Positions 48,942-64,000 of a stretch of DNA of 64,000 bases are shown piece by piece (the stretch's first letter is position 1; each line of letters begins with the position of its first letter). The stretch is from IMG/VR virus record IMGVR_UViG_3300017971_000191, one strand, 5' to 3'. The position numbers and the translations under genes are program-made. Source of the DNA: a virus (Duplodnaviria > Heunggongvirae > Uroviricota > Caudoviricetes). The notes beneath the pieces are model-generated. The model was not told the origin of the DNA, did no database searches, and saw nothing but the letters and a program-made list of their open reading frames with translations.

Positions 48942-49904
48942 TCATTTCTTCTCGGCCGCCGCAGCTTCCTGGCGGAGCTTCTTTTCGTGAGCCGCGGCCA
49001 GCTTGGCGGCCGTCTTCTGCCGAGAACTGGGCAGCCACAGCTTGTAATCCTCAGGATACGCCGTCGTTGCCAACCAGTCCGGCCACATCCGCTGCTGTTC
49101 CGCCCGGAAAGCCTGGAGATCCTTGCCGCAGACATCGACCGCGGTGCTGGGGAACCTGTAGAAGGAAAGCCAGCCCTCGACCTCCTCGGCCTTACTCTCC
49201 TGGCACAACTGCGCCCGGGTCAGCGTCCCCGGCAGCTTGCTCCCCAGGCGGCGATGCAGCTCCTCTCCACGATAATTGTCACCGTTGGAGCCGGCAAGGA
49301 AATACCCCGCACAATCGCCGATCAAGTCGTACTCCATGCCCATCTTCGTGAGCACCTGGATCGACCAGGGACCGCCAGCCCTCACGTCGAGCACCGGCAA
49401 GGCCGCCCGGGGAAACAGCAGCGAGCCCAGAGCACACCGCTCGTGAGGCTGGCCGGCCGGCTGGGCGTAGTCGGTCACGAACAGCTCGTCGCTGTCGTAG
49501 AAGTAGTACAGCGACTGCGCCAGCAAGCAGGGGCCATGGGGGCCGGCACGGTTAAGCTGGAAGTTGAAACGATCGGGGTGGGACAGGTTGTCGTCGTCCC
49601 AACATGCAATCCAGTCGCACCAGGCCCAACCGAGAGCCAGGACGAAAGCCTCGGTCGGCGTCTGGAAATCGACCAGCCTGACCTCGACGAACTCCGAGGG
49701 CACGACCTCGACGCTGTTGAGAAGCCGGCGGTCGTTGAGGAACGTGCGGATCTGCTCCGCGTAGCCGGGTTCCTTGACGACGATCCACAACCGCCGCTCG
49801 GAATACTCCTGCTCCAGGAAATTGACGATCGCCCGCTGGAGCAGGCCCCAGCGGGACGAGTGCGATACGCAGATCGCACCGATGGTAACGGGTTCGTTCA
49901 ACAC
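48942..49904 (-). CDS. GT-A fold glycosyltransferase (GT2-like)
   Basis: TIGAICVSHSS and WDDDN motifs. Confidence 0.4.
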   Translation of the reverse strand: MLNEPVTIGAICVSHSSRWGLLQRAIVNFLEQEYSERRLWIVVKEPGYAEQIRTFLNDRRLLNSVEVVPSEFVEVRLVDFQTPTEAFVLALGWAWCDWIACWDDDNLSHPDRFNFQLNRAGPHGPCLLAQSLYYFYDSDELFVTDYAQPAGQPHERCALGSLLFPRAALPVLDVRAGGPWSIQVLTKMGMEYDLIGDCAGYFLAGSNGDNYRGEELHRRLGSKLPGTLTRAQLCQESKAEEVEGWLSFYRFPSTAVDVCGKDLQAFRAEQQRMWPDWLATTAYPEDYKLWLPSSRQKTAAKLAAAHEKKLRQEAAAAEKK

Positions 49905-49916
49905 TCTGCCTCCTGT

Positions 49917-50561
49917 CTAGGAGCCGAAGGCCGCCAGGGTGAAAGCCATTTCCCACCCGCGAGCGTCTCGCAAGTTGATAGCCTCCAACTGATTGATGCT
50001 AACCAGGCCAACCGTATGACCCAAACGAAGATCTTTACCGTCCGCCAGCCCCCCAGCCTGCGACTCCCATAAACCGTGCGTCACAGCCAGGCAGGCATCG
50101 TAGACCGAGCAGCCGCGGATGAGACGGGCACCGTCCGCCTGGGCCTGGACGATGTACTTGCCGCTCACGGTGACTGCGGCCGGGTGACCCTCCGGATGGA
50201 CAGCGTACAGCACCTTGGCGATCGTGTCACGATCAAGGAACGGGAAAGCGGGATTCACGAGCAAATAGTGGCTCGCGTGGCCGTCGTCGCTGGCCCGCAA
50301 GTAGGCCGCGATCTCGTCGGCCAGCGGGGCGTGCTCATCGCGAGCGATAGGAAAGTAGACACGCACCCGGTCGTCCACGGCGACGGCGTCTCGGAGAGCC
50401 GGGGTCTCGTCGGGATGGCTGACTTCCTTGTCCACCAGCACGGCAATTCGGTCGATCTCGCGGAAGTCTTCGAGCTTCCGCACGGCCAGCTCCAAGGAGG
50501 AGCTGTCACCCAGCCAATCAAGGATCGGCGGGTCTGCTGGGACAATAGCCACTATATCCAT
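49917..50561 (-). CDS. nucleotidyltransferase, cytidylyltransferase-like (CMP-sugar synthetase / IspD-like)
   Basis: N-terminal MDIVAIVPA...LVNPAFPFLD pattern; weak. Confidence 0.35.
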   Translation of the reverse strand: MDIVAIVPADPPILDWLGDSSSLELAVRKLEDFREIDRIAVLVDKEVSHPDETPALRDAVAVDDRVRVYFPIARDEHAPLADEIAAYLRASDDGHASHYLLVNPAFPFLDRDTIAKVLYAVHPEGHPAAVTVSGKYIVQAQADGARLIRGCSVYDACLAVTHGLWESQAGGLADGKDLRLGHTVGLVSINQLEAINLRDARGWEMAFTLAAFGS

Positions 50562-50562
50562 T

Positions 50563-51350
50563 TCAGAACAAATCCTCCGCGTCAAGGTACACTCGGACGT
50601 CGTCCGGCAACTCAAGCCGAACAGTGTGGAAGTTGGCGATTCGTTGCCGCATGCTCCGGTTCTTCAACCGCCGGCAGCTCGGCGTCACAGCGGCATAGGG
50701 AGGCAGTTCGAGATACTCGAACACCTGACCCATGACCTCGTGATAGTTGAGGAACAACTCGCGGTAGTGAATCTCCAGCCGATCATCACAATACTGCCGA
50801 ACCCGCTCCTCGAAGGCCACGTGCCAACGCACGAACGGCACGAGCTTGGAGGGTTCGAGATCGACCGGCAGCGGAGAGTTCAATGGTTGCCGGTCGTCGA
50901 TGTCCTGCTGGAAGACCCCGGTCTGGAGTGCTTGCTTCCAAGAGACGTAGCAAGCCACGGGGTTGCGCAGGACCAAGATGGTACAGAAGTCCCCCTCCAG
51001 GCTACGCTCATGCAGGAACTCCCACAGATCGTTGGCCTTCAGGTGGGGGAACAGAACTTTGACGCCGATTGCCTCCTCGCCGTTCAGCGGGCTGTCGAAG
51101 ACTCGGGCGCTTAGGTATTGCTCGGGGTTGACCTCGCCGGGGATGCAGTGCTCCGGCATGGCCGCCTTAAAAGGCGCCCCGAAATACTCCTCATGGGTCT
51201 CGCGGCGGACATCCTCCTCGTGATGTAGCAAGTCTCCATGGCATGTCGCCTTAGGGTGAGATCGTACGGACGTCTGGATGACGCTCGCTCCGCATCGTAC
51301 TTGACCTGTTACCACGAAGTTGAGGATGTCCTTGCTTCTCTGGGAAGACA
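50563..51350 (-). CDS. sulfotransferase-family protein
   Basis: NFVVTGQVRCGASVIQ is a PAPS 5'-phosphate-binding-like loop. ILVLRNPVACYVS is an RNP 3'-PB-like motif. Confidence 0.45.
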
Positions 51351-51386
51351 TGGACAGTTCCTCGTCACACACGTCTTTTGTCGAGT

Positions 51387-52250
51387 TCAACGTAGGGTCA
51401 CAGACCCTACCACATCCTCTTCCGGAGGACGTTCCAGCGTGCGGACGTTGAAGTGCCCGACCGCCACCTTCACGTACTCCAGCACGTCGTCCGTAACATT
51501 CGGGCAACGCGCCCCGTGAAACACGGGGCCAGCATACTCGCCCAGGAACTCCTCTCGACTCTTGACGTTGAGGCCGTGGTAAATGGCCACATGGAGACAG
51601 GGCCCGGGAAACCAGTCCGGGCCGTTATCAAGGATGACGCGCCGCTCGCCGAACTGCTCGACGAACTGCTTGTCTTCGCCAGGCGCTCCGTTCTCCGGAA
51701 AGAACGGAGAGTCCGCGGCGGACCACAACACCGTACTGGCGTGGCCCAGGCTTTCCACCGGAACGCAGATCACCGTGTTCCGGATGTCGACACGAACCTG
51801 GTGGGAGAGCAACACACAGCAACCCTCGACACGGTGGGCCATCTGGAAGGCCACGCGATGAGGATGGCTATGATCATCGTCGTCGATCGACAGCAGCCAA
51901 TCGCCCTTCGCCTCCCGGATAGCACGATTCCGTAGACCACCGATGGTCGGGTAGTCGTCCCGGGGGACGAGGAACTCGCGTACCAGAGGATGATCGTGGG
52001 TCGTCACACGACGGCCCGACGAGTTGACGATGACGATTTCTTTGCGGCTGTAGGTCTGGCGAACAAACTGGTTCACCGTGGTTCGTGCAATCACGAGCCT
52101 TCGCGGATCGGCTAGTACCAAAAGACCGGTGACCAAAGGACAAGGCTGCCCGCGGTGGGTAGTCGCCTCGGCGTTGGTCTCCTGGTTCTCATCCGACTGA
52201 CCGGGCTTGTCCCCAACATCGTCTAAGGTCGGAGGGACCAGGGTAGGCAT
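51387..52250 (-). CDS. family-2 glycosyltransferase
   Basis: LLVLADPRRLVIARTTVNQFVRQTY...IVIVNSSG...LLSIDDDD. Confidence 0.5.
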   Translation of the reverse strand: MPTLVPPTLDDVGDKPGQSDENQETNAEATTHRGQPCPLVTGLLVLADPRRLVIARTTVNQFVRQTYSRKEIVIVNSSGRRVTTHDHPLVREFLVPRDDYPTIGGLRNRAIREAKGDWLLSIDDDDHSHPHRVAFQMAHRVEGCCVLLSHQVRVDIRNTVICVPVESLGHASTVLWSAADSPFFPENGAPGEDKQFVEQFGERRVILDNGPDWFPGPCLHVAIYHGLNVKSREEFLGEYAGPVFHGARCPNVTDDVLEYVKVAVGHFNVRTLERPPEEDVVGSVTLR

Positions 52251-52302: not shown

Positions 52303-53304
52303 TTACAGGCTGGACAGCAGCGAGGCAAAGGAAACGCTGAAGGCCTCCGCGAAGGGAGACGGCTTCGGCTCCACCTGTGCCACCGGTCGCTTGCCTACCT
52401 CCATGCCCAGCCATTGCGGCCGGTTGCTGACGTCGAGATCACCCGGGCCCAACGGCCACGGAGGCGCCGCATGCGCAGCACGAGACGGCTTCCAGTGCGG
52501 ATCAGGCTCACTGAAGACCAGATGGCTGCTAGTGGGCGTCATGTAGAGCTTCTCGATGTCGAGGACATCCTTGTACTCAATACGCTCTCGCTCCCTGTGG
52601 CGACACCGCGGACAGACGTCCGTCGAAGTGTCGACCTTCTCGTGCAGCACCCAGTTTCTGGTGAAACCCATCGGCTCGCCCGCCTCGTGGGTCAGGCAGC
52701 GATGGTAGAAGCCGCACTTCTTGCAACGCATGAAGGCGATCTTCAATTCCTCCAGCGACCGGGTGAACTTCACGGGCAAGAGCCCTCCCATGAAGATGCG
52801 GTCGACCTGGAGCCGGCGGTCGCGCTGGCAAGCCATCAACTGGAGCGGGAACCGCCTTCCCTGGGCGTCGAACAACGCGGGAAAGGCATCGCAGTTGCGA
52901 TTCTCCTCGTAGCGCAGCTCGGGGAGAAAACCCTTTGGGGAGCACACGCACACTGACTGGGCGAACGCCTGGCGATCGTGAGGGATAAGGAACTGCGCAC
53001 CGACCCACGGCTGCGACCGCAAGGGCCGGTAGACGAGCAGCTCATCAACCAGGGACACCTGCCCGTCGTCCTGGTGAAGGACCGAGGTGCCCGGGGGAGT
53101 AAAGTCGGTCTCGACAGTGAGTCGAGATGTACCCTTGCCAAAGCTCTTCTCCGTATCGGGGGACGGAGAAAACGGCAAGGCCTTCTTCTCTGTTGCAGCG
53201 GCGTCGACTGCCACCGCAGAAGCACCCAGGCCCAGCGGGATCGCCAGGCCGCCAAGGCACTTCGTAAGGAAACCACGTCGGGAGTCTCCCATCAGTACCT
53301 CCAT
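52303..53304 (-). CDS. Tat-signal exported Cys-rich protein (CKKCGFYHRC...CPRCRHRE)
   Basis: SRRGFLTKCLGGLAIPLGLGASAVA twin-arginine signal. Confidence 0.5.
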   Translation of the reverse strand: MEVLMGDSRRGFLTKCLGGLAIPLGLGASAVAVDAAATEKKALPFSPSPDTEKSFGKGTSRLTVETDFTPPGTSVLHQDDGQVSLVDELLVYRPLRSQPWVGAQFLIPHDRQAFAQSVCVCSPKGFLPELRYEENRNCDAFPALFDAQGRRFPLQLMACQRDRRLQVDRIFMGGLLPVKFTRSLEELKIAFMRCKKCGFYHRCLTHEAGEPMGFTRNWVLHEKVDTSTDVCPRCRHRERERIEYKDVLDIEKLYMTPTSSHLVFSEPDPHWKPSRAAHAAPPWPLGPGDLDVSNRPQWLGMEVGKRPVAQVEPKPSPFAEAFSVSFASLLSSL

Positions 53305-53444: not shown

Positions 53445-53486
53445 GCGCAAAAGACAAGGCCAGGGCTGGGCGACCCTGGCCTTGTC
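53445..53486 (-). terminator. perfect 13-bp inverted repeat (GACAAGGCCAGGG / CCCTGGCCTTGTC, loop CTGGGCGA) followed on the minus strand by CUUUUGCGC
   Basis: Seen directly in the sequence. It lies downstream (minus-strand sense) of the tRNA-like element. The flanking GCGCAAAAG context matches the 4621 hairpin. Confidence 0.5.
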
Positions 53487-53549
53487 TACCGTCCGAGTGG
53501 AAGCGGGAAAGTGACCGGCTCTCCCCGATACCACCATTGCACGAATAGG

Positions 53550-53624
53550 GGCCGGCGGAGGGAATCGAACCCCCAACCTTCTCCGCCCGTAGGCTGAGAC
53601 GCTCTGTCACTGAGCTACGCCGGC
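53550..53624 (-). tRNA. tRNA-like element with a non-canonical anticodon arm (possible pseudo-tRNA, attachment-site core, or unusual tRNA)
   Basis: Reverse complement reads GCCGGCG-TA-GCTC-AGTGACA-GAGC-G-[TCTCAGCCTACGGGCGGAGA]-AGGTT-GGGGG-TTCGATT-CCCTC-CGCCGGC-C. The acceptor stem, D-arm and T-arm (GGTTCGATTCC) are canonical. The anticodon arm is 20 nt instead of 17. Confidence 0.4.
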
Positions 53625-53847
53625 GCGACACCGACCCCTTGAAAAGCCGCGGGGCGGTTCGATCCCGCCCATTTCCGCCCTGGTTGTCTCCGGCGAGCAG
53701 GAGGGCAACGGCCCAGTGCTGCGTCGGACGCTAAGAGCGACGTCCTCGCTTAGACGACGCGGCTCGGCCACCGGCCGGTAGGACCTCCGGTCGGCGTCCA
53801 GTGCATCTGACAATCAACCCTGATTGTAGCGGTAGACTTGTTGCAAG

Positions 53848-54957
53848 TCAAGCGCCGGCCAGCTTCTTCCGCTGCACCGTCCACTCGGGATGCTGGAGAG
53901 TCCACTCGATGACCCGAGAGAGGGTCTGCTCGAAGGTGAACGGGGGCGTCCAGCCGAGACTGGCCAGCTTGGAGCCGTCCAGGGCATAGCGGCGATCGTA
54001 ACCAGGACGGACCTGGTCCCCCCTCACATGCCTGGTATAGAGAGGCTTGCCCATCTGATCGGCCACCTTGCCAGCCAGGTCGAGGACGTTCAGCTCCGTC
54101 TCCCCCACGATGTTGAAGCGGCCGGGACACGAAGCTCCCTCGCCCTGCCGGTACATCGGGGGATCGACCTCCTCCAGGATGAACCGCAGGGCGTCGGCCA
54201 TGTTCTTGGCGTCCAACCAGACCCGCTTGGCAATCCGTTCCGGCGAGTCGCCGTGGATCTCTACCGTCTCGCCGTGGAGGATCTTCTGGATCACCTTGGG
54301 CAGGAACTTCTCGGGGTCCTGGCGCTCACCGATCACGTTCATGGTGTTGGTGATCATGATCGGCATGTCGTAGGTCCGCCAGTAGGCGATGCACAACGCT
54401 TCCTGGGCCGCCTTGGAGGCCGAGTAGGGGTTGCTGGGCATGATCGTGGCCCACTCGGGATGCCCGGGACCGTCCCAGCCGGCATCGCCGTAGACCTCGT
54501 CGGTGGAGATGTGGAGGAACTTGAACGGCAGCATGTTCGGCAAGCTGTAGTTCGGCCCCCTGAACAACTCCAGCATGTTGAGGATGAGCTGCGTGTTGTT
54601 CAGCCAACATCGAGCCGGGTCGGTGATCGAACGGGTCACGTGGGAGTCGCTGGCCAGGTTGAGGACGTAATCGAACTGATCGACCAGGGCACGCTCCTCC
54701 ACAACTTCGTAGAGCAGGTTGCCCCACACGTCGGAGAACGGCACCGTCATATCAGCCTTGTGCAGCTTCAGGCGACCCTTCGCCTCGTAGGCTTGCAGCT
54801 CGGGACTGATCCGCGTGCGGTCTCCCTTGTGGAGAGGATGCCAGGAGTCGACCCCCACGACGATCCAATCCGTTCGATCGAGAATCCACTGGGCCACGTG
54901 GTGGCCGATAAACCCACCGATACCGGTGAGCAAGAGTCGAGGAGTTCGGGTGTTCAT
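53848..54957 (-). CDS. NAD-dependent sugar-nucleotide 4,6-dehydratase / epimerase (extended short-chain dehydrogenase/reductase family)
   Basis: Rossmann motif TGIGGFIGHH, plus YSASKAA (YxxxK) and ASDSHVTRS. Confidence 0.6.
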   Translation of the reverse strand: MNTRTPRLLLTGIGGFIGHHVAQWILDRTDWIVVGVDSWHPLHKGDRTRISPELQAYEAKGRLKLHKADMTVPFSDVWGNLLYEVVEERALVDQFDYVLNLASDSHVTRSITDPARCWLNNTQLILNMLELFRGPNYSLPNMLPFKFLHISTDEVYGDAGWDGPGHPEWATIMPSNPYSASKAAQEALCIAYWRTYDMPIMITNTMNVIGERQDPEKFLPKVIQKILHGETVEIHGDSPERIAKRVWLDAKNMADALRFILEEVDPPMYRQGEGASCPGRFNIVGETELNVLDLAGKVADQMGKPLYTRHVRGDQVRPGYDRRYALDGSKLASLGWTPPFTFEQTLSRVIEWTLQHPEWTVQRKKLAGA

Positions 54958-54977: not shown

Positions 54978-55673
54978 TTAGGCATCGGGAATAACGGGCG
55001 CCGGGGTGCCGGCTTGCATGTACTTCCGGCTCTTGACGCCCACGTACTGGTCCCACAAGGAACCAAAGTCGATCAGCGTGTGACGCTGGCCCGCCTTGGC
55101 GTACAGCTCGTGCAGGATGATCTCGGCCGGCATCGAGGCCGACACGGAGACCACGGCGGGTTCGTCGATGGAGTCGAGGGCAGCCAGGGTCTCCCGCACG
55201 ATCTTCCGCCTGGCCAGGAAAGCGTTCTTCGGGGGAACGTCAACGAACTGGGCGTAGGGGACCAGCTTGTTGATACGCTTGAGATGGTCCGGCCCCACGA
55301 TCACCACCTTCCGCTCTTGCAGAGCCTGGATCAGGCGGCCGAGCTTACCGTTGCCAGCCGCCTTGTGGAAGACGTCCGCGTTGATCCAGTTGAAGGTCAG
55401 CTTGTTGGAGGCCAGCCACTTTTCGATCCGCTGCCCAAGCAGCCGCGTGGCGAATGGCTGCATCCCCATCAGGTAGGAAGGCTGCGAGCGGAGCACGGCC
55501 TGCAACTCCTCTCCCATCTCGGGAAAGAAAGCATGCCCGTCGCAGTTGGCACCCCGCACCGTACCCAGCACTGCCCGCCACTCGCCGTCTCCCCAGCGGG
55601 AAAAGGTGAAGGGCTTCCCCTCTCGAATATCCTTCGAGAGCTGTCTAAGGCTGAAATCTCTGGGTCGGATCAC
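54978..55673 (-). CDS. GT-D type glycosyltransferase (DUF1792-like)
   Basis: FSRWGDGEW motif. Confidence 0.45.
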   Translation of the reverse strand: MIRPRDFSLRQLSKDIREGKPFTFSRWGDGEWRAVLGTVRGANCDGHAFFPEMGEELQAVLRSQPSYLMGMQPFATRLLGQRIEKWLASNKLTFNWINADVFHKAAGNGKLGRLIQALQERKVVIVGPDHLKRINKLVPYAQFVDVPPKNAFLARRKIVRETLAALDSIDEPAVVSVSASMPAEIILHELYAKAGQRHTLIDFGSLWDQYVGVKSRKYMQAGTPAPVIPDA

Positions 55674-55826
55674 GAGGCTCTTCCTTGGGCATCAGATCGA
55701 GCTTGAAGAGATCCTGGCCGGGCAGGATCTTGGGTTCCGTACCGGTAGCTCTCCGCTTCTGCTTGCAGACGTCGCAGTCGCAGATTCGCCAGTCGTGGCC
55801 GTCGTTGGGGTAGCGGATGCGCTGGC

Positions 55827-56216
55827 TCACCACAGGTTCATTTGAATGACCGGGGGAATAAACGTAAGGGCCAGGTAGTTGACTCCAAGCTGGAGCACCT
55901 GGCTGACGATCAGCACCCACCAGAACCGAACGTACTCCGGCGGAGGCGTCCACCGGGTGTAGTACGGCTCGTTGGGCGGAGGATGCCCGATGCCCACCAG
56001 CTCGCAGTACCGGCTCGCGATAGCCAGCCGGCCGAAGAGGAAGTGGTAAAGGGCGATCACGAGAATCGCCACCCAGTTCCCCGTCAGCAACCAGAAGAAC
56101 GCCTGGTAGATGATCGTGTGGAGCAAGGCGGCGAACCAACTGTTCGTCTTGTTCAGACGCATCCAGTCGTTCTGAAGCAAGAACTCAGGGACGAGATGGC
56201 AAAGTAGTTGACCCAT
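55827..56216 (-). CDS. small polytopic membrane protein
   Basis: Three to four hydrophobic helices. Confidence 0.45.
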   Translation of the reverse strand: MGQLLCHLVPEFLLQNDWMRLNKTNSWFAALLHTIIYQAFFWLLTGNWVAILVIALYHFLFGRLAIASRYCELVGIGHPPPNEPYYTRWTPPPEYVRFWWVLIVSQVLQLGVNYLALTFIPPVIQMNLW

Positions 56217-56569: not shown

Positions 56570-56750
56570 CGCTCTTGATCCTGTCCACAAGAAAGCCGAA
56601 CACCAGCGCCACGGCGACGATGATTCCCAAACTGCGGCCGTCGATCCACCACTTCCCCGTGACCAGCCACAGGGCCAGCAGGTCCTCGACGAGCCCGGCC
56701 AGGACCATCACACCGACGATCTTGGCGTACTTCCATGCGCGCCGCACCAT
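56541..56750 (-). CDS. small two-transmembrane-helix membrane protein
   Basis: 69 aa; hydrophobic. Confidence 0.35.
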   Translation of the reverse strand: MVRRAWKYAKIVGVMVLAGLVEDLLALWLVTGKWWIDGRSLGIIVAVALVFGFLVDRIKSDGGGTDTAS

Positions 56751-56807
56751 TGGCCTGCTCTCTGTTCATGGGATTCCGTTCCTGGTGAGGCTGTATTGTC
56801 CGCCAAA

Positions 56808-57026
56808 TCAGCCGGCGAGGCAACGCCGATCGACCTCCGCTTTGGTCTTGGCTAGTGCGTCCTCTGGAGTTCTGCCCTCCTTGTTGAAGCCAACGATCTT
56901 GCTGTCTTTCTCCTGCTTCGCCCAGCCGCACCACGGCGTTGGATAGGCGGGCGAGCAGGCCATGCGGAAGACGTGGACCTTCCAGCCACGATACTCAATC
57001 TTCTGGGAGTTCGGCAGCGAGTTCAA
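56808..57026 (-). CDS. small hypothetical protein
   Basis: 72-aa ORF. Confidence 0.35.
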   Translation of the reverse strand: MNSLPNSQKIEYRGWKVHVFRMACSPAYPTPWCGWAKQEKDSKIVGFNKEGRTPEDALAKTKAEVDRRCLAG

Positions 57027-57297
57027 AAATCTTCTCCTTCAGATTCTTCAACTTCCGGGGGACGATCTCCGCCATGGGGGCGCCGATGTCGAGATGACCC
57101 TGAAAAGCCGTCTCCAACTGGGCTTCGCCGAGGAAGATCCACTTGTGGAGCGTACCCTCGCAGTTCGGCTTGGGGACGACTCCCTGCTGACAAGCCTCCA
57201 GGTACTTCAGGGTTAGCTTGAAAAGTTCGGAGCAGGCCTTAGCCCGCCTGTCTCTTCTTGCCACGACCTCCTCCGGCGGAAGGTGACGTTCGTCCAC
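56995..57297 (-). CDS. small hypothetical protein
   Basis: 100-aa ORF. Confidence 0.35.
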   Translation of the reverse strand: MDERHLPPEEVVARRDRRAKACSELFKLTLKYLEACQQGVVPKPNCEGTLHKWIFLGEAQLETAFQGHLDIGAPMAEIVPRKLKNLKEKIFELAAELPED

Positions 57298-57472
57298 GCT
57301 TCTTCTCCCTCTGAAGGGCTCGGATGAGCCAGTCGAGATCCTCGAACTTGAACAGCAGCATGTGAACTCGCTCCCGAGAGAGCGGCTTCAACGCCGTGTC
57401 GTACCGCGAGGTCGGAGCAGCGACGAAGACATCCCCGCTACTCTTTTCCCTCCCCACTTCCAGGCCCGCCAT
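57239..57472 (-). CDS. small hypothetical protein
   Basis: 77-aa ORF. Confidence 0.3.
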   Translation of the reverse strand: MAGLEVGREKSSGDVFVAAPTSRYDTALKPLSRERVHMLLFKFEDLDWLIRALQREKKRGRTSPSAGGGRGKKRQAG

Positions 57473-58370
57473 CGACGATACTCCTTTTGATCTTGTCGCT
57501 CAGGTCATCCGTGACCGGTAACGTCCGGTCAGTAGTCTTGCTGTTCGACCGTTGCAGGTCGTCAGCGTCAAAGTCGCAGCGTGCCAGGGCCGCCGTGTGC
57601 CCGATACACTGCCCGGCCGTCCGCTTGGCCGGTGTCTCCTTGCCCGCCTGCATATCACGGCGGATCTCATTGAGGTCGGCACCGCTGCCATAGAGGACCG
57701 GGATCTCCTGCTCGATGAAGTCGACCTTGTCGTCCTTGTCGAGGAAGATGGTGATCCGGCCCGTCATGGCGTCACAGCAGACCTCGCCGTGGCTGATGCG
57801 GATCGCCGAAGGGTTGAAGCCCCAGCAGTAGCCCAGAATGAGGTTGCTGTACGGCGTGCCCTTCAGCTCGGGGAGGATCTTCGTCACCGTGTAGCCGCTG
57901 CTATGGGCCTGGCGGCTCTTGGGCCGCTCGAAGTGGGCGCCGTTGTGCTGGTTGCGGTAGTGGTCGATGTCCCCGGTGGCCTTGCAGTGGGCGATCATCT
58001 CGGAGAGGTCGATCTCCGCGCCCGGGGGGATCTCGTAGGCGTAGAACTCGACCAGGGAGTCCGGGGGCTTGGCCTGGACATTCTCCACAGGATGCTTGCC
58101 GAGGAACTTCGACGGGTCGAACGGCGTAGACCGTCTATGGCCGTAGACCTGCTTCTCAACTTCCGGGGGCATCCGGCAACCGTTCTCGGCGGTCACCTGT
58201 TGCCCTAGATCATGGGCGGCGGCGTGGGCCATCGACGTCGACTCGCCGGCATGGGTCTGCTCGCGAACGATCAGGCCGCCGGGGGTCTTGGTTTCCTCGG
58301 GCCGCACGATCAGGCCGCCCTGCCTCTTGGCCAGTTCCTCCGCTCGCTTCAGTTTCTTAGGGTCCATTTC
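57438..58370 (-). CDS. hypothetical protein with duplicated GGLIVRPEETKTPGGLIVREQ motif
   Basis: ATG (MDPKKLKRAEEL) chosen; the N-terminal extension in the track is rejected. Confidence 0.45.
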   Translation of the reverse strand, partial: EMDPKKLKRAEELAKRQGGLIVRPEETKTPGGLIVREQTHAGESTSMAHAAAHDLGQQVTAENGCRMPPEVEKQVYGHRRSTPFDPSKFLGKHPVENVQAKPPDSLVEFYAYEIPPGAEIDLSEMIAHCKATGDIDHYRNQHNGAHFERPKSRQAHSSGYTVTKILPELKGTPYSNLILGYCWGFNPSAIRISHGEVCCDAMTGRITIFLDKDDKVDFIEQEIPVLYGSGADLNEIRRDMQAGKETPAKRTAGQCIGHTAALARCDFDADDLQRSNSKTTDRTLPVTDDLSDKIKRSIVDGGPGSGEGKE

Positions 58371-58381: not shown

Positions 58382-59347
58382 TTAGAGCTGCTTGTAGACT
58401 CGGCTCGTAGCTATCCGCTTGACGAACGCTTCCACGCTCAGATGGTCGGTGTCCATCTCCCGCAGGTACTGGTGGGCCGCCTTGATGGCCCCCGGGTCCT
58501 TGACCAGGCTGCTGGCCTGATCCAGGTCGTCCCAGAAGAAGGGATAGGACGCGCCAAGGTAATCCATGGTAGCCGGCAATCGGTTTACCAAACAGGGCGT
58601 CCAGGAACCGATGCAGTCCCCGATGGTCGTGGAGGCGGCCACGTGACGGAAGGAGAGGAACACGATATTGCGGGTGATCATGGCGTCCCACTCCTCGGGT
58701 GAGAGCCTCCGCACGCACGGCGTCGTGCAGCCCAGAGCCCGCAGCCGCCTGGATGTCTGGGGCACGCCGATGACGAACCGCTTTGTCAACCACTCGGGCA
58801 CCTGGAGCCGGTCGAGATGCTGGAACCGCCGCAGCCAGTTGCCCAGCATGACGACCTTCCGCTCCTCGTGCTCCTCGAAGGCCTCCCAGCTCCACTTGGG
58901 AGCCCCGAGGCGGGCCGGTAGCCACGCGCGGCTGACCATGAAGTGAGGGTCCAGACGCCTCTGCTGCTCGTCGCTGAGCACGAACAAGCCGCGGTTGCCG
59001 GGGAGAAACTCCATCTTCCGCCGGATCAGCTCCTCCAAGGCGGACGGCGCCTCCGTGCCGGGCGGCGTGTTGTTGGGCCAGTAGGTCCCCGGAGGCTGGT
59101 GAACGAAGCCGACCCACGGCTCCGGGGGCGTCTTCTTCCAGGGCACGTCGGTCTCCGCTTTCCGCCGGAAGACGACATAGTCGTCCAACGAAGTGAGCAG
59201 CGTTACTCCGTCCTTGTTGTGAAGCTGCTCAACCGTCGCCGTAATAGCCTGGGGCCAACCGTACCGGTGGTGAGGCCAGACGATCGGATCGGCGATGCGT
59301 ACGCGGCGTGGATACATGTCAGAGTGCTCGGGCGGGGTTGCCGACAA
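58382..59347 (-). CDS. hypothetical protein (glycan-cluster member, unknown fold)
   Basis: 321-aa ORF. Confidence 0.45.
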   Translation of the reverse strand: MSATPPEHSDMYPRRVRIADPIVWPHHRYGWPQAITATVEQLHNKDGVTLLTSLDDYVVFRRKAETDVPWKKTPPEPWVGFVHQPPGTYWPNNTPPGTEAPSALEELIRRKMEFLPGNRGLFVLSDEQQRRLDPHFMVSRAWLPARLGAPKWSWEAFEEHEERKVVMLGNWLRRFQHLDRLQVPEWLTKRFVIGVPQTSRRLRALGCTTPCVRRLSPEEWDAMITRNIVFLSFRHVAASTTIGDCIGSWTPCLVNRLPATMDYLGASYPFFWDDLDQASSLVKDPGAIKAAHQYLREMDTDHLSVEAFVKRIATSRVYKQL

Positions 59348-59972
59348 CGACCTGACGATACTCGGTGCTCTTGAGGACGACGGCGCCCATGCCGACGACG
59401 GAGTAGCGGCCGAGGCGGACGTACTCCTTGGTGGCGGCGTTGGTGCCCACGAAGACGCCCTCGCCGACGTCGTTGTTGGCGCCGATGGCGGCGTTGTTGG
59501 CCAGGGTCACGTAGTCGTGGACGATCGTGTCGTGGCCGACGAAGGCGTGGCCCAGGACATGGACGCACTTGCCGATGGTCACATCGGGGCCGAGCTGGGC
59601 GTGGGGGCCGATCAGACAGCCGCGACCGAGACCCACCGCCCCTTGCGGAATGGAGGCCGTCCTGTCGACGCAGCCCACCAGGCGATCGTCGGGGATCTCC
59701 AGCGACTTGATGAAGTCGACCTGCTTCTTGCGGTCGGGGATGCCCACGTAGGCCACGAAGAAGTATGTCTCCCGGTCCCGCTTCAGATGCTCCCGGACGT
59801 CTTCGCTGCGGCCGAGCACGGGGACCTTGAACTGGTGCTTGCCGATCCAGGTGCCCGGCTTCTCGTTGTCATTGAGGAAGCCGAGGAGTTCGTCACCCAC
59901 CTCGGCCTGCTGCTTGAAGATGTAGGCGGCGATCATTCCGATCCCACTACCGCCCAGAATCAGCACTTTCAT
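59319..59972 (-). CDS. sugar N-acetyltransferase, NeuD/PglD-like (left-handed beta-helix with an N-terminal Rossmann-like domain)
   Basis: MKVLILGGSGIG N-terminus, followed by hexapeptide repeats (IGKCVHVLGHAFVGHDTIVHDYVTLANNAAIGANNDVGEG...). Confidence 0.55.
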   Translation of the reverse strand: MKVLILGGSGIGMIAAYIFKQQAEVGDELLGFLNDNEKPGTWIGKHQFKVPVLGRSEDVREHLKRDRETYFFVAYVGIPDRKKQVDFIKSLEIPDDRLVGCVDRTASIPQGAVGLGRGCLIGPHAQLGPDVTIGKCVHVLGHAFVGHDTIVHDYVTLANNAAIGANNDVGEGVFVGTNAATKEYVRLGRYSVVGMGAVVLKSTEYRQVVVGNPARAL

Positions 59973-60441
59973 CGGGAACTCCACGTTTGGGAATGAGAAC
60001 CTCGCGAACGAACTCCAGCACCTGCGTTTCATCCTGGTTGTGGGTCACCGTCTTCACGACAATGATCCCCCGGTCCGGCTTCTTGCAGTCGCGCACGCCG
60101 CGGATGATGCTCGCCGAGCGTAGCGTGTCGCCGATGAACACCGGGGCCTGATGGCTAATGTGGTCGAAGCACAGGTTGGCAATCGCCGTGAGGGAGATGT
60201 CGCGGACCGACTGCCCCACGGCCAGGCTCAAGACCAGCGTGCCGGGCACGAGGATCTTGCCGTGCTGGGACGCCTCGGCAAAGGTGGCGTCGATGTGCAA
60301 TGGATGATGGTTCATCGTGATCAACGAGAACAGATGACACTCCGCCTCGGTGATCGTCTTGCCGGGGAAGTGCCGGTAGATGTGGCCCACCTTGAAGTCT
60401 TCGAGGTAGTTGCCCTCGGGCCGGCGCTTGTCGCTGCGCAT
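59947..60441 (-). CDS. MaoC-like (R)-specific hydratase/dehydratase, hot-dog fold
   Basis: ATG (MRSDKRRPEGNYLEDFKVG...MNHHPLHID). The extension in the track is rejected. Confidence 0.5.
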   Translation of the reverse strand: MRSDKRRPEGNYLEDFKVGHIYRHFPGKTITEAECHLFSLITMNHHPLHIDATFAEASQHGKILVPGTLVLSLAVGQSVRDISLTAIANLCFDHISHQAPVFIGDTLRSASIIRGVRDCKKPDRGIIVVKTVTHNQDETQVLEFVREVLIPKRGVPDESADSGR

Positions 60442-61382
60442 CACTCTCCCTCCTCGTATGGCCAGTTGGGCATCGTCTCGATGTCCCTGCCTTCGCGCTT
60501 GAGGATCTTCTTGTACAGCTCGACCGTTTGACGAGCACGGATCAACGTGGGCGGGGCCACGAAGCGGCCGTCCTCGAAGCTGATACTCCGGTCCGGGTCC
60601 GCCCGGCCGGCACCCTCGACAATCTCCCGGGCCTCGGCCACCTCCTCCTGGGTCGGAGAGAAGGCATGGTTGGCCACGCCGATCTGCCGGGGGTGGAGGA
60701 CCAGCATGCCGGAGAAGCCGATCTCGTAGCTCTGCCTGGCGCGTCGGTAGAGTCCTTCCAGGTTGGTCAGGTCCAAGTAGGGCGTGTCGATCGCCAGGCC
60801 CTTGACGGCCCGACTCGACATGGCCACCAAGGCCCTGGGGACGAACAGTGCCCTTTCGTCCAATGTGCGAGGCGCTTGCAGATCGGCCAGGAAATCCTCG
60901 TGGCCGAAGACCAGCCCAGCCACCCGATGGGAGGAGAGCACGAGGCCGCCGGTGACCATAACTGCTTCGCAGGACTCGACTAAGGGAAACACGCAGAAAG
61001 GCTCCTCGGGAAAACCCGAGGTACACTCCACGTGCTCCATCGACGCATTGAGGTAGCGGACGTCGCGGGCCTCGCGGACCTTGGGCAGGACCAGGCCCGT
61101 CAACTCCCGGCGGATGGACATGGAGACGTCTCCCTCCAGCCGGCCGCTCTCGGCGTCGTTGATGCGGACGAAGACCGGGAAGCCGGCCTCGGCGGCTGCC
61201 GACAGCTTGTCGGGCAGGCTGTCGCGGGCGGCATCCTTCTTCTTCGGCGGTACCGAGTCCTCCAGGTCAAGGACTAAGGCATCTGCCTTGCTCCGCAGAG
61301 CACTCTGGAAGTACCGGTCCACATGGCCCGGTACGAACAGGAGACTACGCAGAAGCAGGTTCTTCGCTTCCTTGGCTTGCAT
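60441..61382 (-). CDS. HpcH/HpaI aldolase / citrate-lyase beta-subunit-like (CitE family) lyase
   Basis: LLFVPGHVDRYFQSALRSKADALVLDLEDSV is the CitE signature region. Confidence 0.5.
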   Translation of the reverse strand: MQAKEAKNLLLRSLLFVPGHVDRYFQSALRSKADALVLDLEDSVPPKKKDAARDSLPDKLSAAAEAGFPVFVRINDAESGRLEGDVSMSIRRELTGLVLPKVREARDVRYLNASMEHVECTSGFPEEPFCVFPLVESCEAVMVTGGLVLSSHRVAGLVFGHEDFLADLQAPRTLDERALFVPRALVAMSSRAVKGLAIDTPYLDLTNLEGLYRRARQSYEIGFSGMLVLHPRQIGVANHAFSPTQEEVAEAREIVEGAGRADPDRSISFEDGRFVAPPTLIRARQTVELYKKILKREGRDIETMPNWPYEEGE

Positions 61383-62457
61383 CGGCTTCTTCCTGGTCGT
61401 GAATGGGTTCGAGGTGCCAGACGAAGGCACTGGGGATCTCCACGCTTATGGGATGCTTCCCGCAGACCATGACGTCGAATTTGGTCTCGTCGACGACTCG
61501 GTAGGGAATCTGCTCCTTGACTCTCTCCCACTCCAGCCAGTCGAGCACGCCCTGGTGGGAGGCATCGTGGAAGAGGAGGAACTCGGGCATCGCGCTGCCG
61601 TGGCGATGCTCGGCAAGAACCTGCGGCGGCACGGCGACGATCTCCCCGATGATCAGGTGGGCGCCGTTGAAGCGGTAGCGGAGATGCTTGAGGAACTCGA
61701 CGACGTTTTCTGCCTTCTTGGCGGCGATCTCGTGGATGAGGAACCACATGGAGATCACGCCGACACCCTCGCCGATCGAAGACAGGTGCCCCTGGAAATG
61801 CTCGGCCCAACCGGCCACGGAGCGAGCATCCGAGGCCACCATGGTGACGTCCCGCCAGGGAAATCTCTTACGGAGACGCTCCCGGGCTCCCTCCAGTGCC
61901 TCGCTCGACAGATCCACGGCGCCGGCCTTGATGCCGGGGTAGCGCTCGATCATCTGGGCAAGGAACGTCCCGTCGCCGCAAGCGATGTCGATAACCCCGT
62001 AAGGCGGCTTCTCCAGCTTGTCGAGCATCTCCATGGCGGCCGGGAAGAACCGCCGGCTGTTGGTCAAGCCACTACCTACGACATTTTCCCAGCGGTTGCA
62101 ACGGGCCCGATCCAGGTCCTGGGTGAGCATCCGGTCCAGGTCCACAGCGAACGAACGGTAGGAGTTAAGCAGTACGAAGGAGCCGAAGCGGCTGAGGACC
62201 TTCCTGCCCAGCTCGGTCACCTCGCAGTCGATGCGCCCGGGATGAGGCTTGTCGACCTTAACCAGCCCCAACGCGACCAGGTAGCGGAAGACAGCCTCCA
62301 GCAGGTCAGGATCGCTGACCTTGAACTCTTCAATCTGGAACGGTCCCTGGAGCATCCGCTTGATCATGCCATGCTTGCCCAGCGTGGCGATTACGGGGCA
62401 GGCAAACAGACCCCGCATCAAAGAGATCAACTCCTCCCTGGGATTCAGCTCCGCCAT
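61345..62457 (-). CDS. SAM-dependent O-methyltransferase (family-2-like, with an N-terminal dimerisation domain)
   Basis: VIDIACGDGTFL is motif I. Confidence 0.5.
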   Translation of the reverse strand: MAELNPREELISLMRGLFACPVIATLGKHGMIKRMLQGPFQIEEFKVSDPDLLEAVFRYLVALGLVKVDKPHPGRIDCEVTELGRKVLSRFGSFVLLNSYRSFAVDLDRMLTQDLDRARCNRWENVVGSGLTNSRRFFPAAMEMLDKLEKPPYGVIDIACGDGTFLAQMIERYPGIKAGAVDLSSEALEGARERLRKRFPWRDVTMVASDARSVAGWAEHFQGHLSSIGEGVGVISMWFLIHEIAAKKAENVVEFLKHLRYRFNGAHLIIGEIVAVPPQVLAEHRHGSAMPEFLLFHDASHQGVLDWLEWERVKEQIPYRVVDETKFDVMVCGKHPISVEIPSAFVWHLEPIHDQEEADASQGSEEPASA

Positions 62458-62460
62458 GAC

Positions 62461-63579
62461 TCATTCCTTCATTGTGCGGAACGCGGCGATGAGATAGCAG
62501 ATCTCCAGCACCTCGTCCCTCGTAAGCGATGTAAACATCGGCAGCACCAGGATGCGCTGGGCAACGGACGTGGCCAACGGGACGTCGGGTCTCGGGAGCG
62601 ATCTGTAGCACGAGTAGTCGCTGACCAGCGGGTAAAAGTACCGCCGCGAGGCAATTCCCCGTTTCTTGAGGAAGTTCATCAACGCCGTCCTGTCGTGGCC
62701 GTAGTCTTCCGGGTCCACCAGGATCGGCATGTAAGCGTAGTTGTACTGGATATTCCCCGACAGGGGAGCAGCAAAACTGATCCCGGGGACCTCGGAGAGC
62801 GCCTGCCGATAGAGGTTGTAGAGGGTCTGGCGATGCGAGATGTCGGCCATCAGCCGGCCCAGGTTGCACACACCCATGAGGGCTTCCAGCTCGTTCATCT
62901 TGGCGTTCGTGCCGGGGACGACGACATCCAGGTCGCCCTCGAAGCCGAAGTAGCGGAGCTTCCGTAGCAGATGACCGACAGCTTCCTCGCGATACACCAC
63001 CAGGCCGCCCTCGCCCGCCTGCAAGACTTTGGTACCGTGGAGACTGAAGACGCTGGCATCGCCGAAGCGCCCGATCGGCTTGCCGTCGACGCGGACGCCG
63101 AAAGCCTGGGCTGCATCATAGATCACCTTCAGGTTGTGCTGCTCGGCGATGATCTCCAAGGCTTTCATGTCGCAGGGATGACCGAAAAGGTGGACCGGCA
63201 GGATCGCGCTGGTGAAGGGGGTGATGGCCGCTTCGACGGCCGCCGGATCGAGGTTGAAGTACCCGCCCTCGATGTCGACGAAGACGGGGCGGAGCCCGGC
63301 CGCATGGCAGGCATGCGTGGTGGCCGCGAAGGTGAAGGGCGTGGTGATCACCTCGCCACGCAGATCCATGGCCCGGAGCGTGAGCTGGAGGGCCAGCGTG
63401 CCGTTGGCCAGCAGGCAGAGCTTGTCGGTGTCCAGGTAGGCGGCTAGTGCCGTCTCGAACGACTTCAGCACGGGGCCGTCGTTGGTCACCTGGCCGCGGC
63501 TCCAGATCATCCGGAGCCCGTCGACGTACATCTCGAAGTCCGGCATCGCGGAACGATTGATGGGGATACGTTCAGCCAT
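62461..63579 (-). CDS. DegT/DnrJ/EryC1/StrS-family PLP-dependent sugar aminotransferase
   Basis: FSLHGTKVLQAGEGG is the PLP-lysine region, and the overall length fits. Confidence 0.6.
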   Translation of the reverse strand: MAERIPINRSAMPDFEMYVDGLRMIWSRGQVTNDGPVLKSFETALAAYLDTDKLCLLANGTLALQLTLRAMDLRGEVITTPFTFAATTHACHAAGLRPVFVDIEGGYFNLDPAAVEAAITPFTSAILPVHLFGHPCDMKALEIIAEQHNLKVIYDAAQAFGVRVDGKPIGRFGDASVFSLHGTKVLQAGEGGLVVYREEAVGHLLRKLRYFGFEGDLDVVVPGTNAKMNELEALMGVCNLGRLMADISHRQTLYNLYRQALSEVPGISFAAPLSGNIQYNYAYMPILVDPEDYGHDRTALMNFLKKRGIASRRYFYPLVSDYSCYRSLPRPDVPLATSVAQRILVLPMFTSLTRDEVLEICYLIAAFRTMKE

Positions 63580-64000
63580 GATATTCCAACGGGTAGTCGT
63601 AGTTTCCGAAGTCCTCCCGGGCCCACACGCGGACAAGCCGTTGTGCCTCCGGATTCTTCAGTGGATCGGGCAGGAAATGCTTCACCTGCTGCCCCCAGTT
63701 GGTCTGCCGTAGAGGATGGTTCTCCGTGAGAATGGGGTTGCGATTGCGGAAGGGGATGCTGATCTTCTCCCAGTCCAGCATCGGCAACGCTGCCTGCAAA
63801 TCTGCATGCAAATTCTCGAATTGCAGCACCTGGTCGACCTCCACCCAGCGAGTCCACTCGGTGAGTGTCCGCCAGAAGAAGTCATCCAGTTCCTGTTCGC
63901 GCACCTCGTCCATGAACGTGAGGAAGGTGTACTTGGTCGGGTCGACCTGCAAGGTCTCGGGGTGATACCATTCCTCCCCTTCGACCTGCAACTCCCCGAG
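63572..64000 (-). CDS. hypothetical protein, 5'-truncated by the window edge
   Basis: The ORF continues beyond the window. Confidence 0.35.
   Translation of the reverse strand, partial: LGELQVEGEEWYHPETLQVDPTKYTFLTFMDEVREQELDDFFWRTLTEWTRWVEVDQVLQFENLHADLQAALPMLDWEKISIPFRNRNPILTENHPLRQTNWGQQVKHFLPDPLKNPEAQRLVRVWAREDFGNYDYPLEYHG

Follow-up and report, generated by a model that had tools for sequence, protein, structure and literature searches.

A predicted amino-sugar and glycan-decoration island in a jumbo phage encoding its own RNA polymerase

Results and Discussion

Layout of the glycan island

The window analyzed here is the whole 64,000-nucleotide (nt) stretch of the IMG/VR virus record IMGVR_UViG_3300017971_000191 (Caudoviricetes), and the system in question is a block of putative glycan biosynthesis genes at positions 48942-64000, hereafter called the island. 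From high to low coordinates, the island encodes a sulfotransferase, a DegT aminotransferase, a methyltransferase, a CitE lyase, a MaoC hydratase, an acyltransferase, two unknown proteins of ~310 amino acids (aa), seven small open reading frames (ORFs), a GT-D glycosyltransferase, a 4,6-dehydratase, a tRNA-like gene, a Cys-rich ORF with a twin-arginine N-terminus, a GT2 glycosyltransferase, another sulfotransferase, a 214-aa protein and a second GT2. All the enzyme families that the initial annotation had listed for this region are present there on the minus strand, as judged from Pfam, structure and conservation. The minus strand holds every convincing gene of the whole window (gene calling based on third-position G+C content, GC3), and all window coordinates below refer to it; the co-directionality pointed out initially is true for all 64 kb and is not peculiar to 48942-64000.

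The end of the window cuts the island. On a near-identical contig of 236,137 bp, ENA ERZ27256798 k141_2288034, the same transcription unit runs ~5.8 kb further upstream. This extension completes the second sulfotransferase and adds two unknown proteins (284 and 356 aa), a methyltransferase, one GT2 and one GT1 glycosyltransferase, a twin-arginine ORF and an epimerase of the RmlC type. Counted from RmlC through the last GT2, the whole island amounts to ~21 kb, i.e. ~9% of the genome, of which 15 kb lie in the window. Gene searches covered ~74 kb of the ~236-kb genome, namely the window and 9.6 kb beyond its end.

The island belongs to a circular-mapping jumbo phage

The long contig was reached through protein P0001, 99% identical to the DegT protein of the window, which led to three contigs, the longest being that of 236,137 bp; it differs from the window by 5 mismatches over an 11.5-kb overlap. 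On this contig, the start positions of the DegT and capsid genes are 198,554 and 18,969, respectively, i.e. 56,552 nt apart when counted around the contig ends, and the corresponding distance in the window is 56,568 nt. Since the two distances agree, the genome maps as a ~236-kb circle, with the window spanning the contig ends. The region is thus part of a jumbo phage of ~236 kb, circular-mapping and equipped with its own RNA polymerase.

The phage identity is carried by several genes outside the island. The major capsid protein (6070..7011, 313 aa) aligns over its full length with the protein annotated as major capsid protein in Salmonella phage Arash (30% identity, E = 1e-39), and another window protein, prohead-protease-like, is related to a 'structural protein' of the same phage and to the capsid maturation protease of a Gordonia phage. 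A multisubunit phage-type RNA polymerase is encoded as a fused beta/beta'-N protein and a beta'-C protein (26322-30764 and 19108-23148; 1480 and 1346 aa), whose nearest cultured relatives, at ~30% identity, are found in Salmonella phage Arash and Vibrio phages D69, D148 and D181. A class II ribonucleotide reductase is likewise encoded in the window, whose G+C content stays at 60-66% all along. Note that the RNA polymerase is oddly split, the 1480-aa protein comprising the beta domains followed by the N-terminal beta' domains and the 1346-aa protein carrying beta' domain 5.

The capsid protein, the RNA polymerase and the circular-mapping contig bear out the initial view that a multi-enzyme glycan pathway resides inside a virus genome. 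A host O-antigen locus lying next to a prophage, the alternative named beforehand, is excluded by the uniform G+C content and strand, by the presence of phage genes to either side and by the circular mapping of the contig. A megablast comparison of the island with 50,697 phage records returned no match.

The sugar genes resemble a dTDP-viosamine route

The dehydratase (53848..54957, 369 aa) matches Pfam GDP_Man_Dehyd (5e-43) and Epimerase (2e-37), with no match to Polysacc_synt_2, and is of the RmlB (dTDP-glucose 4,6-dehydratase) type: it matches the RmlB structure 8du1 at 1e-38 and the NCBIfam model TIGR01181 with 194 bits (2e-57), versus 61 bits (9e-17) for LegB. Its motifs GxGGFxG, TDEVYG and YSASK include the TDE and YxxxK catalytic residues. 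The aminotransferase (62461..63579, 372 aa; Pfam DegT, 7e-93) appears to be a pyridoxal phosphate (PLP)-dependent sugar 4-aminotransferase of the DesI type, matching the DesI structure 2po3 at 1e-65, with perosamine synthases next at ~1e-43, and scoring 287 bits (2e-85) with PLP_DesI (TIGR04427), ahead of PseC (201) and LegC (178). It carries the Schiff-base lysine motif SLHGTKVLQAGEGG (SLHGTK). The third enzyme (59319..59972, 217 aa; Pfam Hexapep and PglD_N) would be a left-handed beta-helix N-acyltransferase of the NeuD/PglB/VioB family, with the dTDP-viosamine N-acetyltransferase VioB (7txp) as its nearest structure (4e-19) and a TIGR03570 score of 136 bits (1e-39) for a cut-off of 161. Beyond the window, the epimerase is a PF00908 protein that matches RmlC structures at 3e-33.

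Taken together, these matches point to a pathway leading from dTDP-glucose to an N-acylated dTDP-4-amino-4,6-dideoxyhexose of the viosamine type, which is not sialic-acid-like, and the RmlC-type epimerase probably provides a second, L-series branch off the same 4-keto intermediate. The pseudaminic or legionaminic acid route put forward initially does not hold up against RmlB-, DesI- and VioB-type enzymes and the absence of NeuB/PseI from the ~74 kb; that no such synthase lies in the window had been noted from the start, and the 9.6 kb beyond it are likewise negative. The other option offered at the time, other dideoxy-amino sugar routes, was the right fallback, as the dehydratase, aminotransferase and acyltransferase follow the logic of a dTDP-4-amino-4,6-dideoxyhexose pathway.

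A putative acyl-CoA module lies next to the sugar genes

Between the aminotransferase and the N-acyltransferase lie three genes that most likely supply an unusual N-acyl group. The first encodes a CitE/RipC-like acyl-coenzyme A (CoA) C-C lyase (60441..61382, 313 aa; Pfam HpcH_HpaI, 2e-35) for which the NCBIfam models citE (4e-41) and RipC_Ccl (citramalyl-CoA lyase of itaconate degradation, 3e-40) nearly tie; its structural matches are citrate lyase beta and CLYBL, with malyl-CoA lyase lower down, and a 20-sequence alignment shows invariant Arg, Glu and Asp residues. The second is a MaoC-type (R)-specific enoyl-CoA hydratase (59947..60441, 164 aa; Pfam MaoC 1e-18, MC_hydratase 9e-13) with RipB_Ich (itaconyl-CoA hydratase) as its best NCBIfam model (4e-37), followed by mesaconyl-CoA hydratases, and with structural matches 4e3e and 8hgn. 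Relative to the equivalog cut-offs, RipB and RipC score 128 versus 340 and 139 versus 375, respectively.

The third gene encodes a winged-helix protein fused to a class I S-adenosylmethionine (SAM) methyltransferase (61345..62457, 370 aa; Pfam Methyltransf_25, Methyltransf_36 and WH_AprA). Its nearest NCBIfam model is ketoArg_3Met (4e-18), and its nearest structures are MppJ (8e-7) and 2-ketoarginine methyltransferase (3e-4). It had been called an O-methyltransferase: a SAM methyltransferase it is, but its closest relatives are 2-keto-acid C-methyltransferases, which it resembles, and it is not recognizably an O-methyltransferase. As for the unusual N-acyl, methyl or sulfate decoration suggested earlier from the MaoC, CitE, methyltransferase and sulfotransferase genes, the first three most plausibly provide an unusual N-acyl group.

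The acyl cassette recurs in bacterial glycan loci

Homologues of the lyase, 43-49% identical, were found on bacterial metagenome contigs in a cassette with the methyltransferase, the hydratase and the N-acyltransferase, adjoining DegT, Wzx flippase, NeuB, CTP_transf_3 and Maf-like genes; in a single-protein scan of IMG/VR, the lyase had no relative. A scan of one genome per bacterial species gave 80 loci with this lyase subtype, mostly from metagenome-assembled genomes of Bacteroidota and Cloacimonadota and also from other phyla, with cultured carriers including Psychroserpens sp. S379A, Profundicola chukchiensis KMM 9724 and Anoxynatronum buryatiense Su22. In 66 of the 80 loci, the hydratase gene is no more than 300 nt away from the lyase; a PglD-like acyltransferase is as close in 27, and DegT is within 6 kb in 36. 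NeuB is present in 9 loci, whereas 14 have a gene resembling RmlB and 3 the methyltransferase. Several loci (e.g. L060, L062, L069) have a contiguous set of DegT, MaoC, CitE and left-handed beta-helix (LbH) genes, with DegT and acyltransferase proteins 43-50% identical to those of the phage, and L060 is a polysaccharide locus of the usual Wzx type. Across the loci, the MaoC-CitE(-LbH) cassette is joined to differing amino-sugar scaffolds, namely NeuB, WbpB/WbpE-like diamino-uronic-acid and RmlB/DegT loci.

We infer that the cassette is a portable 'N-acyl group' module with an optional methyltransferase, and the phage version is one acquired from bacteria. If malyl-CoA were the product of such a lyase, its thioester carbon would yield exactly a 4-malyl amide. 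Pseudoalteromonas O-antigens are known to carry N-(4-malyl) amino sugars (PMC3210612), and the occurrence of the cassette in bacterial polysaccharide and nonulosonic-acid loci offers a testable hypothesis for the origin of malyl-/citramalyl-type N-acyl groups. Our literature search returned no paper linking CitE/MaoC enzymes to glycan N-acylation or describing the cassette, and nothing relevant on phage viosamine or jumbo-phage sulfotransferases.

A glycosyltransferase and sulfotransferase core is conserved in related phages

Contigs of related phages were reached from the relatives of the 214-aa protein, and a 234,886-bp IMG/VR genome from the sulfotransferase alignment. Three of the core proteins score under the Pfam cut-offs and are conserved at 31-68% identity in these phages. 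The GT2-like glycosyltransferase at 48942..49904 (320 aa; Glycos_transf_2, E = 0.0085, 16.5 bits, under cut-off; DDD at 49590-49598) has homologues of 31-50% identity at the same position in contigs L089, L090, L091 and L097. The sulfotransferase at 50563..51351 (262 aa; Sulfotransfer_1 0.0025, Sulfotransfer_3 0.0096; 17.7 bits, under cut-offs) has motifs, RCGAS and RNPVACYVS, that resemble loops binding 3'-phosphoadenosine 5'-phosphosulfate (PAPS) and is 45-68% identical to its counterparts in four related phage contigs. The putative GT-D-fold glycosyltransferase at 54978..55673 (231 aa; GT-D-like 4e-5, 23.4 bits, under cut-off) is 57% identical to its homologue in L091 and 38% in L097. The GT2 at 51387..52250 (287 aa, DDDD motif) passes the cut-off (Glycos_transf_2 1.4e-6, 28.7 bits) and also has homologues in related phages. 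The second sulfotransferase is represented in the window by its C-terminal part (63572..64000); on the near-identical contig, the full 212-aa protein gives a weak Sulfotransfer_2 match, and its N-terminus, beyond the window, carries PKTAST and RNPFTRATS. In NCBIfam, the core sulfotransferase, GT-D and the two ~310-aa unknowns had no match.

The order common to all the related phages is GT2, sulfotransferase, IspD-fold (214-aa) protein, GT2, a GerE-type helix-turn-helix (HTH) protein, a 176-aa protein and a Pro-rich protein of ~600 aa, with GT-D upstream, and this core is syntenic across phages diverged to 30-60% protein identity. The relatives vary in the accessory part (RmlB, DegT, acyl cassette), and the GT-D/GT2/sulfotransferase/IspD-fold/GT2 core stays constant. 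For example, a related 26-kb contig also has a GT1, a second sulfotransferase, RmlB (62% identity) and a twin-arginine ORF with an almost unchanged signal; missing from it are the DegT aminotransferase, methyltransferase, lyase, hydratase and acyltransferase genes and both ~310-aa unknowns. In the related IMG/VR phage, RmlB is also missing at that position. The island thus consists of a clade-wide core and lineage-specific additions. A 'moraphage' jumbo lineage with four core glycosyltransferases was considered and set aside as unrelated on account of its lacking an RNA polymerase.

Another glycosyltransferase lies outside the island. The GT2-methyltransferase fusion noticed initially at 2989..4206 (405 aa) is confirmed by a Glycos_transf_2 match of 24.5 bits, over the cut-off, and by Methyltransf_23, and it sits in the head module, ~1.9 kb downstream of the major capsid gene.

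Downstream of the core, the conserved neighbors extend over 46404..48934, with the GerE-type HTH protein at 48704-48934, the 176-aa protein at 48223-48753 and the Pro-rich 611-aa protein at 46404-48239. Their homologues come directly after the core in L091, L092 and L097, the GerE Pfam match being obtained on the L091 homologue, and these GerE/LuxR-type HTH, 176-aa and Pro-rich proteins follow the glycan core in every related phage compared. The Pro-rich 611-aa protein is a candidate acceptor of the glycan.

The 214-aa core protein is predicted to adopt an IspD/TarI fold

The 214-aa protein (49917..50561) had no Pfam or PDB sequence match by itself and stood alone in a word-indexed search of 5.8 billion clustered proteins. 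An exhaustive HMMER search recovered 16 remote relatives, giving a 17-member family whose profile matches TarI (6xhp, 1.4e-4) and IspD (7e-4); hhalign aligns the family profile with CTP_transf_3 over 191 columns with a probability of 76%, whereas the single sequence is negative. AlphaFold modeled the protein with a predicted local distance difference test (pLDDT) score of 91 from the 17-sequence alignment. Using Foldseek, this model retrieved IspD, TarI, human ISPD and the CMP-Kdn/NeuAc synthetases (NeuA), with template modeling (TM) scores of ~0.73 and E-values down to 3e-11. The protein is therefore predicted to have a cytidylyltransferase fold scoring nearer IspD/TarI than the CMP-nonulosonic acid (CMP-NulO) synthetases.

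The Arg/Lys nucleotide loop of the PARGGSKR type, invariant in six reference CTP_transf_3 sequences, is replaced in the 214-aa family by a conserved VPxxxxxxWLG, and the activity of the protein is therefore uncertain. Of the initial cytidylyltransferase-like call, the fold is retained (pLDDT 91, TM ~0.73) and the canonical Arg/Lys P-loop is gone. Note that the alignment of the 17-member family is too variable for a pattern scan.

Proposed route

The following scheme may be drawn from these assignments. Starting from dTDP-glucose, presumably provided by the host, the RmlB-type enzyme would form dTDP-4-keto-6-deoxyglucose, the DesI-type aminotransferase would convert it to a viosamine-type dTDP-4-amino-4,6-dideoxyhexose and the VioB-family enzyme would N-acylate the amino sugar; these three steps are supported by homology and motifs. 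The acyl donor could arise from the RipC/CitE-like lyase working in the condensing direction, joining acetyl-CoA with pyruvate or glyoxylate into a citramalyl- or malyl-type CoA ester, which the RipB/MaoC-like hydratase may interconvert with an itaconyl- or mesaconyl-type enoyl-CoA, the 2-keto-acid-type methyltransferase possibly altering the keto-acid partner or the acyl group. The RmlC-type epimerase could feed a rhamnose-type L-series sugar from the 4-keto intermediate. At least five island glycosyltransferases, i.e. two GT2 and GT-D in the window and GT1 and GT2 beyond, would then build an oligosaccharide that the two sulfotransferases and further methyltransferases would decorate.

Candidate glycan targets

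As to the target, we propose that this soluble machinery glycosylates phage-encoded, probably virion, proteins in the cytoplasm, a proposal that we regard as evenly balanced between right and wrong. It is favored because the machinery is soluble, with at most two hydrophobic segments in any island protein, because the core is deeply conserved, because a GT2-methyltransferase lies in the head module and because Mimivirus sets a precedent. It is further favored because no Wzx/Wzy-type, ABC (ATP-binding cassette) transporter or initiating phosphoglycosyl transferase gene was found in the island, whereas the bacterial cassettes adjoin Wzx. The full reading is more tentative: it is possible, on the doubtful side, that a clade of RNA-polymerase jumbo phages autonomously furnishes its virion proteins with an oligosaccharide bearing sulfate and methyl groups and that the present member captured a widespread bacterial cassette (DesI-type aminotransferase, RipB-like, RipC-like, VioB-like and sometimes keto-acid methyltransferase) that would install a dicarboxylic N-acyl group of citramalyl, itaconyl or malyl type on amino sugars.

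Several observations weigh against the proposed pathway and target. On the chemical side, all the enzyme assignments score under the NCBIfam equivalog cut-offs, so that the exact substrates and stereochemistry are inferred, and the sugar configuration (D-gluco or L-series) is not readable from the sequence. The best-scoring named relatives of the lyase and hydratase are catabolic (itaconate degradation), the direction of the pair being deduced here. RmlA (NTP_transferase) and RmlD were not found in the ~74 kb searched, which is why dTDP-glucose is presumed to come from the host, and ~160 kb of the genome lie outside these ~74 kb. On the side of the target, nothing points out the glycan acceptor. 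Virion proteins rich in glycosylation sites, which the initial annotation proposed to look for, did not stand out: a Ser/Thr/Pro-density scan of the head-module proteins gave no obvious glycosylation tail and no site-rich structural protein. Three twin-arginine-like ORFs in or near the island point to the periplasm. Finally, similar clusters in jumbo cyanophages have been taken to alter the surface of the host (PMC7824862).

The last two points lead to the best-surviving alternative, in which the chemistry is the same and the product remodels the host envelope (O-antigen of the lipopolysaccharide (LPS), capsule or other glycan), blocking superinfection or changing adsorption, with the lipid carrier, flippase and polymerase provided by the host. 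We consider it unlikely. In its favor, the 15-gene 'LPS' clusters of P-SSM2 and other jumbo cyanophages have been interpreted in this way (PMC7824862), the acyl cassette clearly derives from bacterial Wzx-type surface-polysaccharide loci and is present here but not in the relatives, as expected of a host-specific, fast-changing trait, and twin-arginine-signal ORFs lie inside the island. However, an initiating phosphoglycosyl transferase, flippase, polymerase, ligase or GtrA/B-type gene is absent from the 25 kb and from the rest of the window, the glycosyltransferase/sulfotransferase core is syntenic in deeply diverged phages, in contrast with the sporadic occurrence reported for the cyanophage clusters, and the window showed neither an integrase nor lysogeny genes.

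The twin-arginine signals could also indicate an island dedicated to a soluble glycosylated small molecule or to a secreted glycoprotein exported by the twin-arginine translocation (Tat) pathway, since a conserved twin-arginine Cys-rich ORF lies inside the core with two more nearby, and jumbo cyanophages also bear sugar-derived secondary-metabolite clusters (PMC7824862). We hold this to be improbable: no polyketide synthase, nonribosomal peptide synthetase, terpene aglycone enzymes or exporter was detected in the window and flank, and at least five glycosyltransferases fit an oligosaccharide rather than a single glycosylation.

Hypermodification of the phage DNA with a complex glycan, as a protection against restriction and CRISPR, is more improbable still. 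Phage glycosyltransferases are able to assemble diverse glycans on the 5-hydroxymethylcytosine or 5-hydroxycytosine of DNA (bioRxiv 10.1101/2023.12.21.572611; PMC13326640), and the island enzymes are all soluble. However, the published systems have base-modifying genes flanking the DNA-glycosylating transferases, and Pfam revealed no cytosine C5-methyltransferase, TET/JBP-type oxygenase (5mYOX/TET), dCMP/dUMP hydroxymethylase or known DNA glycosyltransferase in the window ORFs, many of which have no family match, or in the flank. In addition, we know of no report of N-acylated amino sugars or sulfation on DNA.

Lastly, a nonulosonic-acid (pseudaminic/legionaminic) pathway with its synthase elsewhere in the genome, for which the 214-aa protein, sharing its fold with CMP-sugar synthetases, would activate the nine-carbon sugar, has next to no credibility: bacterial relatives of the cassette sometimes lie in loci of NeuB, CTP_transf_3 and Maf type (the 9 NeuB loci among 80 given above), but RmlB, DesI and VioB, all enzymes of dTDP-hexose synthesis, are the best-scoring assignments for the dehydratase, aminotransferase and acyltransferase, an RmlC-type epimerase is present, NeuB (PF03102) is missing from the ~74 kb, and the 214-aa family lacks the canonical Arg/Lys P-loop and stands nearer IspD/TarI than CMP-NulO synthetases.

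Comparison with known systems

The proposed glycosylation of virion proteins is best compared with Mimivirus, in which a nine-gene fibril-glycosylation cluster makes viosamine and rhamnose through the dehydratase R141, the aminotransferase L136, the N-acetyltransferase L142 and the epimerase/reductase L780, one dehydratase feeding both the rhamnose and the N-acetyl-viosamine branches for methylated fibril glycans (PMC4691112). Both systems are virus-encoded, have a 4,6-dehydratase feeding a 3,5-epimerase (rhamnose) branch and a branch with PLP-dependent 4-aminotransferase and N-acyltransferase, and are clustered with glycosyltransferases and methyltransferases, the Mimivirus sugar being O-methylated. 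Mimivirus differs in its UDP-sugars, the eukaryotic origin of its dehydratase, its plain acetyl group and its experimentally shown fibril target; the phage island, known from its genes alone, has bacterial dTDP-type enzymes, a putative acyl-CoA-making module, two sulfotransferases and a bacterial host.

Among bacterial pathways, the sequence of an RmlB product, a C4 aminotransferase and a left-handed beta-helix N-acyltransferase is that of VioA/VioB. The flagellin of Pseudomonas syringae carries a 'modified viosamine', another N-acyl-viosamine route, and the AntA-D anthrose operon of Bacillus anthracis uses a dedicated enoyl-CoA hydratase to make its hydroxyacyl-CoA donor for a sugar that is also methylated. 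Unlike in anthrose synthesis, the phage acyl donor would come from the lyase, MaoC and methyltransferase and not from a crotonase acting on methylcrotonyl-CoA, and AntD is not among the PDB sequence matches of the phage acyltransferase. As in itaconate degradation, where RipB/Ich and RipC/Ccl are the best-named families for the hydratase and, in a near tie, for the lyase, the two genes are adjacent; unlike there, no RipA/Ict CoA-transferase accompanies them, and the pair sits between a sugar aminotransferase and an N-acyltransferase, in the phage as well as in dozens of glycan loci from bacteria.

To our knowledge, mycobacteriophages have only a few glycosyltransferases and no nucleotide-sugar pathway. 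According to the account of Freeman et al. (2023) cited in PMC12619734, phage glycosyltransferases O-glycosylate capsid and tail subunits of mycobacteriophage virions in the cytoplasm. In contrast to mycobacteriophages, no glycosylated C-terminal tail is evident in the capsid protein of the present phage. The cyanophage clusters of P-SSM2 type (PMC7824862) are likewise a large jumbo-phage block with NAD-dependent epimerase/dehydratases, cupin isomerases and several glycosyltransferase families, their function being read from sequence; they have sugar kinases and HIGH-type nucleotidyltransferases, which the phage island lacks, and are described as sporadic and polymorphic. Beyond them, the island has an aminotransferase, the acyl cassette, sulfotransferases, the IspD-fold protein and a clade-conserved core.

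Glycan gene blocks of jumbo phages and autonomous glycosylation by giant viruses are thus already known. New here are the predicted dTDP-amino-sugar route with a built-in acyl-CoA module, two sulfotransferases and a divergent IspD-fold family, as well as the conservation of the core across a previously undescribed clade of RNA-polymerase jumbo phages and the recognition of the uncharacterized acyl cassette throughout bacterial glycan loci. Such complete viral glycan machinery is documented in giant viruses of eukaryotes and, in phages, has mostly been deduced from cyanophage 'LPS' clusters. If the proposed reading is true, a virion-glycosylating jumbo-phage clade would be the bacteriophage counterpart of giant-virus fibril glycosylation, and the island would suit asking what self-made phage glycans do, i.e. 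virion shielding, receptor mimicry or superinfection exclusion.

Twin-arginine ORFs, tRNA-like gene and other features of the window

The Cys-rich protein at 52303..53304, with a twin-arginine-type N-terminus SRRGFLTKCLGGLA, CxxC pairs and no Pfam or PHROG match, has a 30% identical homologue in L091 that keeps SRRGFLSQCLGGLA. Three ORFs in or beside the island (52303-53304; L002:296-799; L002:4333-4962) open with twin-arginine-like signals, namely SRRGFLTKCLGG, KRRDFLTQGVT and NRRQLLGNTIMAG, respectively, which would make them Tat-exported proteins of a jumbo-phage glycan island.

The tRNA-like gene (53550..53624; Rfam tRNA 50.8 bits, gathering score 29) interrupts the island in a 540-nt gap (region 53450-53855) and is absent from the related contig L091. 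Its anticodon-loop region has 12 nt versus 9 in the model, and ARAGORN returns tRNA-??? with the anticodon unnamed. It is flanked by a sigma-70-like promoter at 53851-53823 (TTGACT-17-TACAAT) and by a strong hairpin with a T-run at 53478-53455.

The 309-aa and 311-aa unknowns (57438..58367 and 58382..59317) match nothing in Pfam, PHROGs or NCBIfam; the former is missing from the related phages and bacterial cassette loci compared, and the latter had no relative in a single-protein scan of IMG/VR. A PHROGs scan of ten island proteins of unknown or weakly assigned function gave nothing. The seven small ORFs (61-129 aa) occupy 55645..57472 according to the gene calls on the near-identical contig and include a putative DUF3307-like membrane protein at 55827-56216 (weak Pfam match and hydropathy).

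Outside the island, a 643-aa polyvalent protein with an InPase domain (42657-44588; Pfam 1.6e-49) has a C-terminal stretch matching a PHROG annotated as phosphoheptose isomerase (3e-23), and may be another link to sugar metabolism. Accessory genes at 33300-34157, 37423-38046 and 41484-42119 encode a thioredoxin-domain protein, a Methyltransf_24 methyltransferase adjoining the ribonucleotide reductase and an SPFH/Band-7 protein, respectively; most of the remaining window ORFs belong to no Pfam or PHROG family. In the related contig L092, an IS605 OrfB/TnpB (Cas12f-like) gene lies on the opposite strand at L092:10053-11234, just past the conserved neighbors of the core.

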